Shown in pieces: positions 39,069 through 44,142 of a stretch of DNA of 44,142 bases. Origin of the DNA: Bacteroidota bacterium. Lineage in GTDB: Bacteria > Bacteroidota > Bacteroidia > JABEUT01. The DNA lies in assembly GCA_013289395.1 (NCBI GenBank), contig JABCZY010000004.1:1-44142 (forward strand). The letters run 5' to 3'. A program made the position numbers and the translations under genes. The notes under the pieces are model-generated. The model worked only from the letters and a program-made list of their open reading frames with translations, ran no database searches and was not told where the DNA came from. Every line of letters starts with the position of its first letter. Within the stretch, counting starts at the first letter, position 1.

Positions 39069-39926
39069 ATGCTGGTTAAAACATATGGAAGTGCAGTTAG
39101 CGGAATAGATGCTACAACAATTACAGTCGAAGTAAATGTGAGTGCAGGGGTTAATTTCTTTTTAGTGGGATTGCCCGATAGCGCAGTTAAGGAAAGCCAG
39201 CAGCGGATAGATGCCGCTCTTAAAAATAATGGGTTCCGTTTGCCCGGTAAAATGATAACCGTAAATATGGCGCCGGCCGATATTCGTAAGGAAGGTTCTT
39301 CTTATGACCTAACTATAGCAATTGGCATACTAGCCGCTTCGGAACAAATAACAAGCGAGAAGGTTGGCGAATATGTAATTATGGGCGAACTGTCTCTTGA
39401 TGGAGGACTACAACCCATAAAAGGCGTATTGCCTATAGCCCTTAATGCCCGAAAAGAAGGATTTAAAGGGCTTATTCTGCCTGAGCAGAATGCTAAAGAG
39501 GCTGCAATTGTAGAAGGCCTGAATGTATATGGTATTAAGAATATTAAGGAAGCGATTGATTTTTTAAATGGCGATATAGAATTACAACCTGTTGTAGTTG
39601 ATGCTCTCGAAACATTTCATACTCAGTTATCATTGGCCGATGTAGATTTTGCAGATGTAAAAGGCCAGGAAAATATAAAACGGGCACTTGAAATTGCAGC
39701 TGCCGGCGGGCATAATGTAATACTGATCGGCCCTCCGGGTGCCGGCAAAACTATGTTAGCAAAACGCCTACCCACCATATTACCTCCACTTACATTAGAT
39801 GAAGCACTTGAAACCACAAAAATACATTCCGTTGCAGGTAAGGTAGGAAGTGGCAAAGGGCTTGTAGCATCGCGTCCGTTCCGTGCTCCGCACCATACTA
39901 TTTCAGATGTGGCTTTGTTGCAATGA
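39069..39926 (+). pseudogene. comM: comM (YifB / Mg-chelatase-like AAA ATPase), 5' fragment interrupted by an insertion
   Basis: VGLPD.AVKES, NMAPAD.RKEG, GELSLDG, GPPGAGKTMLA and RPFRAPHHTISDVAL, then LQ-stop instead of the conserved VGGG. 285 aa against about 500 aa for the family. Confidence 0.92.
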
Positions 39927-41612
39927 GGCATTTTTAGTATCAGGTCCTAATTCCCATATTCCCCCATCTTCTTTCTCAATACCAATAGGATGCCATCCAA
40001 GCCCTTTTTTGGGTATTTCATATATCCAAGGAGCAAGCTTTAATTCCAGGTTAAAAATGACCTTAACAATATGCGTGTTTGCCTTTTCGTCAAATCCAAT
40101 TCGAATCTGATGTATATAATTTTTCAATAATTCCCTTTTTTCTATATCGGTTTTACTGTCAAGATCAGAGTTTAAGTCTTCAAATACCTTTATATTGGGG
40201 AACTGAAGGTCCTTTTTGGATTGTAGGAATTTAAGCTCATTAATTGCTGATTGTATTTTACCTTCTAAATTTCCAATTTCTTCAATAAATTCATTATTTT
40301 TTTGAGTCAACTGCTCATCTGAAAATATTCTTTTAGTTGCAAGAGTAAGCAAGGTATTTTGTTGGTCTTTAATACTCGAAATCTGATTGTAATAGGTCTT
40401 GACATAATGTTCCAATTCTTTTATTTTCTTTTCATCTATTCCAGTCCCAAGCTCATTTATTGCCTTTACCAAAAGAATATTCGACTCCTTAAAATTTGTC
40501 CAAACGACCTCATTCAACCGATCAATATTAATACTCCTCATATTGCACTCTTTATGCCGTTTTGAGACACATGAATAAACCCGCATACTTCTTTTGGGTT
40601 TTATTATACCATACATACCTTTTCCGCATTTTTCACATCGAATAAAACCCTTGAGCATATAAAAATGGACTTTATTGTTCCTTCCTGCAAGAATACTGTT
40701 ATTCTTAAGGTTTTTTTGAACAGCTTCCCATAGAGACACTTCAATCATCGGTGTCACAGGTAATATTAGACCCTTATATCGCCTATGCCCTTTATAAATT
40801 GGATTTTTTAAAATACTCAAGATGGTATTAGGTCTCCAAATAATATCTTCTTGATTAACGTGTCGAACTTCACCGGTTAGTCTGTCTTTTAATTTTAAGC
40901 CATTTACAAGGCTTTTCCTGCCTCGTGTCGGAACTCCTTCCTCATTTAGATTCTTGGCTATTGTTGCCGTACCAATGCCTTCTAAACTCATCTTGAAGAT
41001 TTTTATAATGATTAAAACTTCATCCGGGTGAAACTCTAATGGTCCGCTTTCAATTTTAATGATTTCGTCACCATCAAATATTTTTATAGATTGCCTACGA
41101 AATCCATAAGGGAGCATAACACCACCACTCCATTTGCCTTTTTTGGCTGATTGTTCCAAGGTTCGCACTACCCTCTCATTTTTCAACCTTATTTCATGCA
41201 TGCTCAATACATTACTTATACCAAGCATTAATTCATGTGTAGGATTATTTTTGATGTCATATATATTATGGGAATCATAAAATAATATGCCATACTTCTT
41301 AAATATGCCTTTAATATAAGCTCCAATTTTTTCATTTCTGGCTAACCTATCCCACTCAGTACAAAAAATATGCTTAACCACCCCTTTCTCGCATCCTTCC
41401 AATAGACCTTTAAATACTGGTCTATTGTCTAAATTATCAGCAGTAGCGCTTGTGCCGGTGTTTTCATCACCTTCTCTCTGAATAATGGGAATCAAGTTAT
41501 AAGTATTTCCAATTCTTAAACCTGTCTCTTCTTGTGCAGGTGGGCTATTATCTTTTTTAGCGCTTTTATCTCCAGAGACCCGAATATAAATATGCAATTC
41601 TTCCTTCTTCAT
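39903..41612 (-). CDS. Large serine recombinase (resolvase + recombinase + Zn-ribbon/coiled-coil)
   Basis: YIRVS catalytic Ser, RP, DRLAR, PYGF, ILKNPIYKG, CEKCG...YSC...C and a coiled coil. Confidence 0.95.
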   Translation of the reverse strand: MKKEELHIYIRVSGDKSAKKDNSPPAQEETGLRIGNTYNLIPIIQREGDENTGTSATADNLDNRPVFKGLLEGCEKGVVKHIFCTEWDRLARNEKIGAYIKGIFKKYGILFYDSHNIYDIKNNPTHELMLGISNVLSMHEIRLKNERVVRTLEQSAKKGKWSGGVMLPYGFRRQSIKIFDGDEIIKIESGPLEFHPDEVLIIIKIFKMSLEGIGTATIAKNLNEEGVPTRGRKSLVNGLKLKDRLTGEVRHVNQEDIIWRPNTILSILKNPIYKGHRRYKGLILPVTPMIEVSLWEAVQKNLKNNSILAGRNNKVHFYMLKGFIRCEKCGKGMYGIIKPKRSMRVYSCVSKRHKECNMRSINIDRLNEVVWTNFKESNILLVKAINELGTGIDEKKIKELEHYVKTYYNQISSIKDQQNTLLTLATKRIFSDEQLTQKNNEFIEEIGNLEGKIQSAINELKFLQSKKDLQFPNIKVFEDLNSDLDSKTDIEKRELLKNYIHQIRIGFDEKANTHIVKVIFNLELKLAPWIYEIPKKGLGWHPIGIEKEDGGIWELGPDTKNASLQQSHI

Positions 41613-41685
41613 GATTCCGTTACAGTTTCGTTATTTTAGCTATATCCTGATATAACCCAGTAAATTTCAATTTAAATTACCTCAA

Positions 41686-41712
41686 CAAAAAAGCCTATCA
41701 ATAAAGGCTTGT
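41686..41712 (-). terminator. Rho-independent terminator between the tyrosine integrase and serine recombinase genes
   Basis: Minus strand aagcct-ttattgat-aggctt followed by ttttgttg. Confidence 0.55.
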
Positions 41713-41788
41713 ATAGAATTATATACTGCCTTAAATTCTCTATAAGAATTATGGTCAAATGTTACTGAGCTCCATAATCGTTTGATAT

Positions 41789-41845
41789 ACTGGGTATTCC
41801 ATTTTATTCGTTATTATTTTCGTTAATTTCAACAGAATACCCAGT
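41789..41845. repeat. Perfect 11-bp inverted repeat with 35-bp spacer
   Basis: ACTGGGTATTC at 41789-41799 and GAATACCCAGT at 41835-41845. Confidence 0.75.
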
Positions 41846-41853
41846 TAAATTAA

Positions 41854-43005
41854 TTAGGCAGCTATATTTCCAATACCCACTATGTCCAATTCCGGAAGTG
41901 TATCGAACCTTACATCAAAGTAGTGTAATAAGGTTGCCTCCTTCAATTCACTCTCTAGGATTTCTCCATAATTTGTCATTCCTATGGTATTAGGAACGTG
42001 ACCAAGTGCTTTCTCCATAATCTCTACCCTCTTAGTATGGTTTAGTATTAGATTAGCAAAAGTTTTTCGGCAGCAGTGAGTAGTAATATGCTTGGGAATA
42101 CCAGCTGCTTTTACCCAGTTAAAGAGTGCCTTTCGGAATAAATGATATCCAATGATCTTGAATCCTGGGAAAATGAAATCATTATCATTACCACGCTTTC
42201 CCAATAATCTAACAACATCAGGACGTATGTAAATGTGTAACAATTTGCCGGTCTTAGACATACATTTATTTAGGACGTACTCATTATTACCCTTTTCAAG
42301 AATATGTTTCCATTGCAGGCTTTTCAGATCTGAAATTCTTAGCCCAGAAAAGACACCAAATATTACAGAAACCTTTATGAAATCATATTTGCAATAAGCA
42401 GCCCACATAGCTGATACATCTTCAGCACTTAATATCTCTTTCGACGCACATGGTATTTTTCTTATGGGTTTAACATCAAGATAATTGTGAATCAAACCAT
42501 ACTTCGTTGCCACATTTAATACATGGCTGATTTTAGTAAAATTACCATACGAAGTATTAATATGCCGACATTTCGCTATGAAGAATTCTTGCAAGTCATC
42601 AACAAAAAACTGGTCAATTCTATTAAATGGCAGCTCGTTTGTTCTCAAGCCTTTTGACTGCAAAAAGTCCTTAAGAAGATTTCTTGGGTATTTATATGTT
42701 TTTTTCGTATGTGCTTTTTTACCCATCTCTACTTTTTCATAAAGAGCAAGAAAATCCTTTCTCCATCCATCAGATAAATAGAAGTTTTCATTTACTTCAG
42801 TTTCCAATCTAATTCTCTCCATTTCAGCTCTTACCATGGCATCCTTATCATCCAGGCTTGTAGCTTTAAAATCTAATCGTCTAGTAAGTTCTGCGTTACG
42901 AATTCCTGTTGCTTTATCTTTGAATTCAATGTAAAGTGTATATCCGTCCTTTTTAGGTGTTAGGTCCACTCTTACTCGACCTTTATATTGTGTATTGTTT
43001 TCCAT
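41854..43005 (-). CDS. Tyrosine recombinase/integrase (Bacteroidota type)
   Basis: Arm-like N-terminus, SAM-like domain, then SGLRISD, KTGK, HCCRKTF, LGH and TNY, giving a full R-K-H-R-H-Y set. Confidence 0.9.
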   Translation of the reverse strand: MENNTQYKGRVRVDLTPKKDGYTLYIEFKDKATGIRNAELTRRLDFKATSLDDKDAMVRAEMERIRLETEVNENFYLSDGWRKDFLALYEKVEMGKKAHTKKTYKYPRNLLKDFLQSKGLRTNELPFNRIDQFFVDDLQEFFIAKCRHINTSYGNFTKISHVLNVATKYGLIHNYLDVKPIRKIPCASKEILSAEDVSAMWAAYCKYDFIKVSVIFGVFSGLRISDLKSLQWKHILEKGNNEYVLNKCMSKTGKLLHIYIRPDVVRLLGKRGNDNDFIFPGFKIIGYHLFRKALFNWVKAAGIPKHITTHCCRKTFANLILNHTKRVEIMEKALGHVPNTIGMTNYGEILESELKEATLLHYFDVRFDTLPELDIVGIGNIAA

Positions 43006-43042
43006 AATTGTTTGTTTTTTAATTTTTATTTATTTAAATTGG

Positions 43043-43486
43043 TTAAAAGGGGATGACTTCATTATTTGATGGCTTCAACACTTCGCATGATAGATATGCC
43101 CTGCGTACTTCATTAAGGGTAAAATCCTCCAAGCCAATAACCTTGCCCCATTCCTCACAATAAATATTAATGTGATAGTAACTCAGCTTATTCAGGGCAG
43201 GAAAAACATAGCTATCATTACTTAAACGATCACCTAGTTGTTGCCTGATAATTGGGCGTATAAAATGTCTAAACCTCTCACATGAAAGTTCTATTAAGAA
43301 GCTTATTAAATGTTTTCCATCTGGGGTATCAATAATGTTCGACCATTTCAGGTTCTGTATTTCTACTCTACGCAACCCAGTATTTGCTACTAATATCAAG
43401 GCTGGTTTTAACTCCGGTATTCTACATGGCATTGAAAGAAGATGCTTCAATTGGATGGTTGTCGGCATTGTTTTCTTTGTTTTCAT
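43043..43486 (-). CDS. Truncated tyrosine-recombinase catalytic-domain homolog (147 aa)
   Basis: NTGLRRVEIQNLKW..I, IRP, VFP and TLNEVRR; lacks the K, H, LGH and Tyr residues. Intact ORF with a TAGGTTTG box at 43510-43517. Confidence 0.7.
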   Translation of the reverse strand: MKTKKTMPTTIQLKHLLSMPCRIPELKPALILVANTGLRRVEIQNLKWSNIIDTPDGKHLISFLIELSCERFRHFIRPIIRQQLGDRLSNDSYVFPALNKLSYYHINIYCEEWGKVIGLEDFTLNEVRRAYLSCEVLKPSNNEVIPF

Positions 43487-43545
43487 AATGTTTGTTTTTT
43501 AATTTTTGACAAACCTATCGTGTATATCTCTTGTGGAGATGCGTA

Positions 43546-43573
43546 CAATGGAAGATCATTCAATCTTCCATTG
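43546..43573. repeat. 11-6-11 palindrome (candidate recombinase core site or operator)
   Basis: CAATGGAAGAT-cattca-ATCTTCCATTG, with no adjacent U tract. Confidence 0.75.
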
Positions 43574-43598
43574 CAAATACCTAAACTATTCTTCTTGA

Positions 43599-44142
43599 TT
43601 ATTTTGTCAGGTGACCCGATGGCATGGTAAACTCACTATACCATTGTGCACTTAAGGATTTATTTTTCCCCAATAAGTTATTTACAGCCCTTAGATACAT
43701 GTCTATTTTGCTGTTTTGGTCTAGAGTATCGTTGCCCTTAAAACAGTCACAAAAATTCTTAGCAATATACCCGGCAATACTCCAAATTTGTCCCTTAACA
43801 AATTTATGTGTTTGATTATTGTGAACTATCCATTCTTTCATTGTTCTATTAATAAATAGAAGCCAAGCAGTATCAGACATTTTTTTATTTCTTCTTTGCT
43901 TTTTAATAGTAAGCCGAACAGTGTACTTTAATAAATCATTAAATCCATTATACTTCCTATACTCGTCCTTAGTATCGGGATTGATATACTTTGTAGCCTC
44001 GAAAAAATAACTCCTTTGTTTATGAAAATAAGTTAAAGCCACTGATAACCTATCTTCGATTACCTTGGTGTAATACAAGCCTTCTTCAAGCCTGATGTCA
44101 TGCAATAAACTGAAGCATTTGACAATTTTATGATTACTGACT
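43599..44142 (-). CDS. Hypothetical protein, 5' end beyond the window
   Basis: The frame stays open from the TTG at 44105 to the window edge; no recognisable motif. Confidence 0.6.
   Translation of the reverse strand, partial: VSNHKIVKCFSLLHDIRLEEGLYYTKVIEDRLSVALTYFHKQRSYFFEATKYINPDTKDEYRKYNGFNDLLKYTVRLTIKKQRRNKKMSDTAWLLFINRTMKEWIVHNNQTHKFVKGQIWSIAGYIAKNFCDCFKGNDTLDQNSKIDMYLRAVNNLLGKNKSLSAQWYSEFTMPSGHLTK

Follow-up and report, generated by a model that had tools for sequence, protein, structure and literature searches.

What are recombinases of two chemistries doing side by side in an interrupted comM gene? The question is raised by one end of a 44,142-nucleotide stretch of Bacteroidota DNA (the window, contig JABCZY010000004.1 of assembly GCA_013289395.1, referred to here as contig C4 of G000, a 52%-complete genome of 112 contigs and 1.87 Mb). 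There, the 5' part of comM is followed by genes for a large serine recombinase (LSR), a tyrosine integrase and a short tyrosine-recombinase-like protein. An earlier reading of this DNA, the original prediction, had described a comM-targeted element with the LSR at the junction, and left the choice between a nested element and one module in which the LSR integrates while the tyrosine pair resolves, inverts or controls directionality. Its core is borne out: comM was the target of the insert, an LSR is present at the junction, and the three genes lie where they had been placed, all co-oriented on the minus strand. The answer that we favour, and consider probable, is that the LSR made a genomic island in comM, and that the tyrosine integrase and its neighbours would be a nested or accreted second element, or the remnant of one.

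Insertion of the island into comM

The 5' fragment of comM, a gene of the ComM/YifB family, occupies positions 39069..39917 of the plus strand and encodes ChlI and the N-terminal part of the AAA+ domain (Pfam ChlI, and Mg_chelatase from position 1 to 91 of 207). It is truncated within the Asp-Val-Ala-Leu codons, and the open reading frame (ORF) runs on to 39926 (39069-39926(+), 285 aa), where it ends with ...HHTISDVALLQ and a stop codon. The gene is thus cut after HHTISDVAL, as described earlier, with the break at 39906-39917, and the 3' half that was expected to begin at about VGGG is present on another contig of the same genome (G000:C80:2375-3103(-)). This half starts with ...SDVALVGGGG, its frame reads ...SDVALVGGGGFPQ... 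and Pfam recognises in it Mg_chelatase_C and the remainder of Mg_chelatase (C80:2405-3082(-)). The longest string common to both junctions is a 12-bp core, GATGTGGCTTTG, which stands at 39906..39917 in the window (attL) and is identical at C80 3062-3073 (attR). G+C content is ~0.42 in comM vs 0.31-0.36 in the insert. Joining the halves at the core in silico gives an in-frame comM of 511 aa, in line with the suggestion that precise excision would restore the gene, and a comM 'switch' is possible in sequence terms only. Excision products, sought as joints or as a loose end at the att core, were not found among the contigs of four runs (X1-X4), which tells nothing either way since contigs drop rare forms.

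The site before insertion can be seen in G011, the nearest sister species, in which it is empty and the ComM 3' part is 99% identical; this genome matches the window flank at 90.6% and the C80 flank at 89.2%, and the two matches overlap by 16 nt at the core. The site is likewise unoccupied in G003, G009 and G002. Among the 18 genomes of the genus sampled for the state of comM, the frame is at least 512 aa long in 11, the gene is contiguous across the site and broken only by a contig end in G011 and G002, frames of 427 and 453 aa that exceed the 3' part are found in G004 and G016, and comM is split at this site in three (G000, G014 and G015).

The two other occupied genomes are the most informative about how the insertion took place. 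In G015 the whole island, 12.7 kb long, lies on one contig and interrupts the same comM codon; its LSR is 35% identical to that of the window and located at the same end. The island of G014, also at the same codon and with the LSR at the same end, measures at least 31.9 kb, and its LSR is 62% identical. Identity between left and right junctions, in register in all three genomes, extends over 12 bp in G000, 4 bp (GATG) in G015 and 2 bp (GA) in G014. Serine recombinases use a 2-bp non-palindromic overlap and tyrosine recombinases 6-8 identical bases. With only GA in common, the G014 junctions fit a serine recombinase and not a tyrosine-type overlap of 6-8 bp, and because junction identity falls to 2 bp, which is too short for tyrosine recombinases, we infer that LSRs made the comM junctions. 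The crossover dinucleotide is probably the GA at 39906-39907, in the Asp codon of comM, where a 2-bp staggered exchange would have taken place within ...HHTIS-D-VALVGGGG. This probable GA crossover would be common to three LSRs that are only 35-62% identical.

The large serine recombinase

The gene at the left junction (39903..41612, minus strand) encodes an LSR of 569 aa that was identified by Pfam (Resolvase PF00239, 1.3e-17; Recombinase PF07508, 5.9e-15; Zn_ribbon_recom PF13408, 1.1e-10), by PHROG 95 (integrase, 2e-72) and by homologues at the same comM site. R11-V12-S13, of which the Ser is the nucleophile, is invariant among nine homologues (alignment A1). That this protein is the integrase of the island and the maker of the comM junctions may be regarded as close to shown. 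Its stop codon (39903-39905) is the complement of a comM Ser codon and lies inside comM-derived DNA, so that the att core and comM DNA supply the final codons of the LSR. In the same-orientation relatives with a known junction (G015, L057 and L064), the LSR frame also terminates inside comM-derived DNA.

The frame is 569 aa long when integrated vs a calculated 604 aa in the excised form. A swap of C-terminal tails was therefore considered as a directionality switch and rejected: the excised frame gains 35 aa in G000 and 64 aa in G015, and since these tails are unrelated in sequence the swap is probably incidental. The C-termini of the nine LSR homologues follow a loose PPxxTxSH[RHI] pattern encoded by the att core and flank, the conservation of which may come from constraint on the DNA site rather than from protein function. 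In L062 (L062:7436-9877(+)) and L058 (L058:7925-9820(+)) the LSR frame continues in frame into the comM 3' half, which predicts an LSR-ComM(C-half) fusion ORF, ~813 aa long in L062; at one-in-three odds each, these two cases may be due to chance.

In many systems, excision by LSRs requires a recombination directionality factor (RDF). RDFs have, to our knowledge, no common signature, and no RDF-like gene was recognised by Pfam, PHROG or NCBIfam in the 4.2 kb of island within the window. The NCBIfam XisF equivalog reached 82 bits vs a cut-off of 375.

The tyrosine integrase and its candidate sites

The next gene (41854..43005, minus strand) encodes a tyrosine integrase of 383 aa with a lambda-Int-like three-domain build, recognised by Pfam (Phage_int_SAM_5, PF13102, 6.9e-08, and Phage_integrase), alignments A3/A5, an AlphaFold model and Foldseek. 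Its catalytic R-K-H-R-H-Y set is complete in the alignments (R223, K251, H310, R313, H336 and Y346). The model (pLDDT 84) displays strands at 7-13, 21-30 and 42-48 and a helix at 54-74, together with a helical core-binding domain and a catalytic domain, and Foldseek aligns it with full-length lambda Int (1z1b, 1z1g and 5j0n) over 368-390 columns; the arm-binding domain PF17293 was not detected in the integrase by sequence. As modelled, this build is that of an arm-site integrase, not of a simple invertase or a Xer-type resolvase. The closest homologue is 48% identical and lies on a 1250-bp contig, and all the others are at most 30% identical.

The spacer between the LSR and integrase genes (41613..41853) contains a hairpin and a pair of inverted 10-mers, TACTGGGTAT (41788-41797) and ATACCCAGTT (41837-41846), which are candidate sites for binding by the tyrosine integrase. 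The 44-kb window has three exact copies of TACCCAGT, all of them at 41789-42119, vs a whole-window expectation of 0.89, a statistic that is indicative only since the motif was picked after being seen. Copies of this type also occur inside the 3' end of the integrase gene, one of them at 42111-42120, and their grouping at 41788-42119 is the sole cluster among 62 copies in the 1.87-Mb genome. The hairpin is terminator-like and located between the two genes at 41691-41710(-); with one such site vs 2.2 expected it is not significant alone. An AT-rich near-palindrome at 43023-43048 is weak. Palindromes had been described between the genes, and it is the inverted 10-mers of the LSR-integrase spacer that hold up. 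A tRNA or RNA gene was also considered as a target of an inner element and set aside, none having been found.

Comparison of strains touches the same region. Contigs of four runs (X1-X4, of which X1-X3 are possibly the source of the window and not independent) were used, with one depth figure per contig. Single contigs of X1 and X2 cover the DNA from comM to the last ORF of the window (ORF180, see below) and extend 10.6 and 14.4 kb further. The long contigs of X3 (depth 61) and X4 (depth 98) end at 42578 and 42126, respectively, both inside the integrase gene, and past these points the window has no coverage other than short contigs at depth 1-4.5. The X4 end point is 6 nt after the TACCCAGT-type copy at 42111-42120. 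This evidence is weak and suggests that the comM-LSR junction is common to the strains and that the DNA from within the integrase gene onward differs.

A short non-catalytic relative and ORF180

The third gene (43043..43486, minus strand) encodes a short tyrosine-recombinase-like protein of 147 aa, identified by Pfam (Phage_integrase, 27.6 bits vs a cut-off of 27.1), alignments A3/A6/A7, AlphaFold and Foldseek. It is 19-20% identical to the neighbouring integrase and, in the alignments, retains the first catalytic Arg only, the hairpin Lys, the His of HxxR, the second His and the Tyr being absent. In its AlphaFold model (pLDDT 79.8), the chain folds like the first two thirds of a catalytic domain, and Foldseek matches it to XerH, XerA and Cre at TMq 0.59-0.68. 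In an exhaustive HMMER search, its best real relatives are P0070 (196 aa, 39% identical) and P0071 (145 aa, 36% identical), both collinear with it from Met1 and lacking the same catalytic residues; the longest contig of each is 160,004 bases. The other matches are mostly integrases of 340-410 aa, aligned at their catalytic domain, and in the order (18 genus genomes) only full-length integrases were found as relatives. That the gene is a mere fragment is made less credible by these two collinear and equally short proteins.

An 18-nt leader, GTTTGTTTTTTAATTTTT, stands just upstream of the integrase start (43010..43027) and again upstream of the start of the short gene (43490..43507), and these are its only copies in the 1.87-Mb genome. 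Together, the short relatives and the leader that it has in common with the integrase gene suggest that the short protein may be a conserved non-catalytic partner of the integrase. Such a family of short tyrosine recombinase (YR)-domain proteins devoid of catalytic residues is small and unexplained, and deserves follow-up by specialists.

The last ORF, ORF180 (43599..44141, minus strand), is known from the ORF listing, is at least 180 aa long, is open at the window end and belongs to no recognisable family, there being no Pfam, PHROG, NCBIfam or usable atlas match and matches at chance level only in 61 genomes. The idea that ORF180 and the short gene are the two pieces of one broken integrase was set aside as doubtful: ORF180 has no similarity to the N-terminal half of the integrase, no Pfam or atlas match, and genome matches that are due to chance (unrelated enzymes).

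Recombinases in related comM islands

Scanning one genome per species with an LSR alignment (A2) yielded 24 loci. In 11 of the 14 Bacteroidota-type loci (L057-L070), a comM half lies directly beside the LSR according to tblastn, in four orientations, the match ending at residues 279-283 of the 5' part or starting at residue 1 of the 3' part. In all, 14 comM-LSR islands were counted, that of G000 and 13 others, and in L057-L070 the Pfam search covered 61 element-side ORFs of at least 110 aa out of the 161 listed.

The tyrosine genes of the window do not recur in this sample. The integrase, the short protein and ORF180 have no tblastn match in the 24 LSR loci, no full-length tyrosine integrase exists in the sequence examined of the 13 other comM-LSR islands, and neither the G014 island (30 ORFs) nor the G015 island (9 ORFs) encodes any tyrosine recombinase. 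The original prediction had made the module depend on the co-occurrence of the three genes in homologous loci, and the lack of a full-length tyrosine integrase or of a relative of the short protein in the 13 other islands goes against it, within this sample. Its nested-element alternative, for its part, fits the two sister islands at the same comM codon, which do without any tyrosine recombinase.

What does recur is a second small recombinase, found in 11 of the 14 comM-LSR islands (those of G000 and G014 included) and at most 130 bp from the LSR in six, an unexplained regularity that was counted without a matched control. Proteins of ~200 aa and of the resolvase/invertase type occur in L057, L058, L060, L062, L064, L067 and L070; L059 and L069 have a short (175-200 aa), catalytically complete tyrosine recombinase 25-126 bp downstream of the LSR; and in G014, L062 and L064 a small serine recombinase is present at most 100 bp upstream of it. 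Several of these genes adjoin restriction or defence genes. No second recombinase was found in the complete G015 island, nor in the 3-4.6 kb of element available in each of L061 and L068, and among the LSR loci outside comM a small resolvase occurs in one of three examined (L066, with none in L065 and L063). The high frequency of these genes is worth the attention of specialists.

Two neighbourhoods may be described more closely. The LSR of G014 is preceded by a 174-aa resolvase-like ORF (L017:1011-1535(-)) and by a second LSR. This ORF overlaps the LSR start codon, has RVN in place of RVS (Asn at the nucleophilic Ser) and is devoid of a DNA-binding tail, which makes for a non-catalytic serine-recombinase-like protein that echoes the non-catalytic tyrosine-recombinase-like protein of the window. 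In G003:C67 (L031:9690-12484), a 513-aa LSR is followed after 192 bp by a co-oriented 353-aa tyrosine integrase, a 253-aa ORF, a 96-aa Xis-like helix-turn-helix protein and a 150-aa ORF. These genes sit amid methylase, restriction and transposase genes and resemble stacked mobile elements, which fits a nested arrangement.

One machine or two elements

In the scenario that we favour, the LSR would have inserted the island into comM, leaving its own gene at attL in the left arm, at the window end, with the right arm and the comM 3' half on C80. The tyrosine integrase, the short dead paralog and probably ORF180 would form a second integrative element, or a remnant, inside the island beside the LSR gene, and the integrase gene would read outward to what is left of its own attachment site, the repeated TACCCAGT sites at 41788-42119. 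The two chemistries would not cooperate: the LSR alone would have made, and could undo, the comM junctions, with the integrase serving its own element only. The separation of this element from the LSR is suggested by the sister islands without tyrosine genes, the modelled arm-type build of the integrase, its own cluster of sites, the hairpin that sets it apart and the rarity of its lineage. The X3 and X4 contig ends inside the integrase gene are a weak hint in the same direction. Tandem and decayed integrative elements are described as common, and as arising by accretion, in the excerpted text of Guedon et al. 2017 (PMC5704250), with which a second element undergoing accretion and decay is consistent. 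A row of three recombinase genes thus need not be one machine, and comparing islands at the same site can separate the resident integrase from a lodger.

Several points count against this scenario. The frequency of second small recombinases could mean that such a gene is a regular part of these islands. With the collinear short relatives and the common 18-nt leader, the integrase and short genes look more like a functional pair than like debris. The available part of the G000 island amounts to no more than ~6.8 kb (~4.2 kb in the window and ~2.6 kb on C80), the 52%-complete genome contains no further TACCCAGT cluster and the far end of the supposed element is absent from the data, so that no attL/attR pair is shown for it. 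Finally, X3 and X4 diverge inside the integrase gene and not at an element boundary in the spacer.

The readings that make more of the company of the three genes have to be weighed against these difficulties. The lack of a recognisable RDF would suit one co-evolved module, in which the LSR integrates and the tyrosine integrase and short paralog provide resolution or directionality in its place, but we know of no mechanism that would let a tyrosine recombinase determine LSR directionality. Similarly, the genes are co-oriented and closely spaced, with the leader common to two of them, but a terminator-like hairpin stands between the LSR and integrase genes; and a second recombinase does sit beside the LSR in G014, L062 and L064 (small serine) and in L059 and L069 (short tyrosine), but the closest LSR, that of G014, is paired with serine-type and not tyrosine genes, the complete island of G015, at the same site, does without a second recombinase, and none of the 13 other comM-LSR islands contains relatives of the tyrosine genes. 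It also counts against the module that TnpX of Tn4451 acts both ways without an RDF, according to the excerpts of Guedon 2017 (PMC5704250). A module of this kind is, all told, very unlikely. Distinctly unlikely, too, is the broader proposal that Bacteroidota LSR islands are regularly two-recombinase systems, with an accessory serine or tyrosine recombinase for resolution, inversion or excision control. Its version here would be the arm-type integrase and the short non-catalytic YR-domain protein, of a previously undescribed family and with the leader in common, the short protein perhaps serving the integrase as a regulator or as a subunit without catalytic activity.

Two other possibilities concern what the tyrosine integrase acts on. 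It could be an island-borne recombinase working on internal sites (by inversion, cassette exchange or resolution) and the source of strain variability at its own gene, which we regard as unlikely. The high-depth contigs of X3 and X4 do stop inside the gene (42578 and 42126), with a continuation at depth 1-4.5, but their break points are 452 bp apart and hence not one site, and depth does not return to a high level within 2 kb past the breaks, unlike what an inversion would give. Suitable sites would be provided by the inverted 10-mers beside the gene and by another copy at 42112, which is 6 nt away from where the X4 contig stops, and small resolvases/invertases or short tyrosine recombinases are frequent in comM-LSR islands, several of them near restriction or defence genes; an arm-binding-type N-terminal domain such as the one modelled here is, however, typical of integrases and not of simple invertases or resolvases. 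The island is in one piece in no source, the longest contigs bearing its two arms being different (84,786 and 197,629 bases), and no joints were seen in the run contigs, though contigs drop rare forms. The alternative that the tyrosine integrase made the comM junctions and that the LSR is cargo is hardly credible. The 12-bp identical core of G000 would be sufficient for the overlap region of a tyrosine recombinase, but no tyrosine recombinase is encoded by the G015 and G014 islands, which occupy the same codon with 4 and 2 bp of identity between their junctions, the LSR gene adjoins the comM junction in 11 further loci, and the LSR frame ends inside comM-derived DNA in G015, L057 and L064.

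Extent and gene content of the island

Neither C4 nor C80 has an end that overlaps, by k-mers, with another contig of G000. Metagenome scans for further island sequence found nothing, nor did a scan of genome contigs with a single protein. The right arm on C80, which contains a run of 10 N at position 155, encodes two signal-peptide proteins without family (L033, 3529-5664), one of 158 aa and the other of at least 545 aa, the latter rich in Thr, Ser and Asn and repeat-like. Within the island parts available, PHROG matches are to integrases only, and signs of a prophage are lacking in these 6.8 kb, with no relatives among viral contigs and phage records at most 28% identical. There are no phage genes in the complete G015 island nor in the at least 31.9 kb of the G014 island. 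No conjugation or mobilisation genes (relaxase, coupling protein, oriT) were seen in the G014 and G015 islands or in the available parts of the G000 island, the middle of which is missing.

The cargo of the sister islands is diverse. That of G015 comprises RadC, an OLD-TOPRIM ATPase with a UvrD-like helicase (a Gabija-like pair) and a 1388-aa Type ISP restriction enzyme (L018:10327-19919, L054), and that of G014 lanthipeptide genes (LanB/LanC), a DNA methylase, a Z1/ResIII protein, DUF2130, DUF2779 and an rve transposase (L017/L053).

Comparison with known systems

The tyrosine integrase resembles lambda Int and the CTnDOT/NBU-type integrases in its R-K-H-R-H-Y set, PF13102 core-binding domain, modelled N-terminal three-stranded sheet and helix, and short repeated sites beside the gene. 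It differs in that no homologue with context exceeds 30% identity and in that the spacing from the last His to the Tyr is longer by one residue. The LSR island itself recalls the gene-interrupting LSR elements whose excision restores a gene, namely Listeria phage A118 in comK, the Bacillus skin element (SpoIVCA) in sigK and the Anabaena fdxN element (XisF), with which it has in common an LSR at a junction within a coding gene and a frame (511 aa) that precise excision would restore. Unlike these elements, it comes with no evidence of regulated excision, and no phage genes were seen in the G000 island parts.

If the tyrosine genes do form a second element, the closest parallels are the tandem and nested elements in the excerpts of Guedon 2017 (PMC5704250), likewise with two unrelated integrases side by side and, here, one tyrosine-recombinase-like gene that is non-catalytic. 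Among Bacteroidota elements, the Prevotella MTnPi of the same excerpts shows that tyrosine-recombinase duos exist; it differs in that both its proteins are described there as recombinases, while in G000 the second is 147 aa long and without catalytic residues, and no inner att pair is shown.

Islands of this kind generally disrupt comM. A parallel from another kind of element is offered by the AbaR/AbGRI islands of Acinetobacter, which also inactivate comM and for which comM disruption reduces the removal of islands by transformation, as stated in the excerpts of Tuffet et al. 2024 (PMC11441513). The same rationale may apply by analogy to the G000 island, with the difference that AbaR islands are Tn7-like transposons in transformable hosts, whereas this is an LSR element in a lineage not known to be competent.

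The nearest counterparts are the comM-targeting LSR elements. In the excerpted results of Durrant 2022 (PMC10083194), homologues of Mg-chelatase/ATP-dependent proteases are the target of 12.4% of predicted site-specific LSRs, and targets are enriched for competence genes. LSR targeting of this gene family has therefore already been published, and the core of our finding is a known phenomenon, to which the present island adds a well-resolved new case with exact junctions and an empty site in a sister species. The comM LSR/att pairs could serve as orthogonal integration tools for Bacteroidota. Compared with the elements in these excerpts (Durrant 2022, PMC10083194), it stands out by its Bacteroidota soil lineage, an LSR frame that extends across attL and the presence of a tyrosine integrase in the island. 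In the remainder it conforms to them: a Resolvase/Recombinase/Zn-ribbon LSR borders the insert, which interrupts a ComM/YifB homologue, and one conserved site, empty in relatives, serves diverse LSRs.

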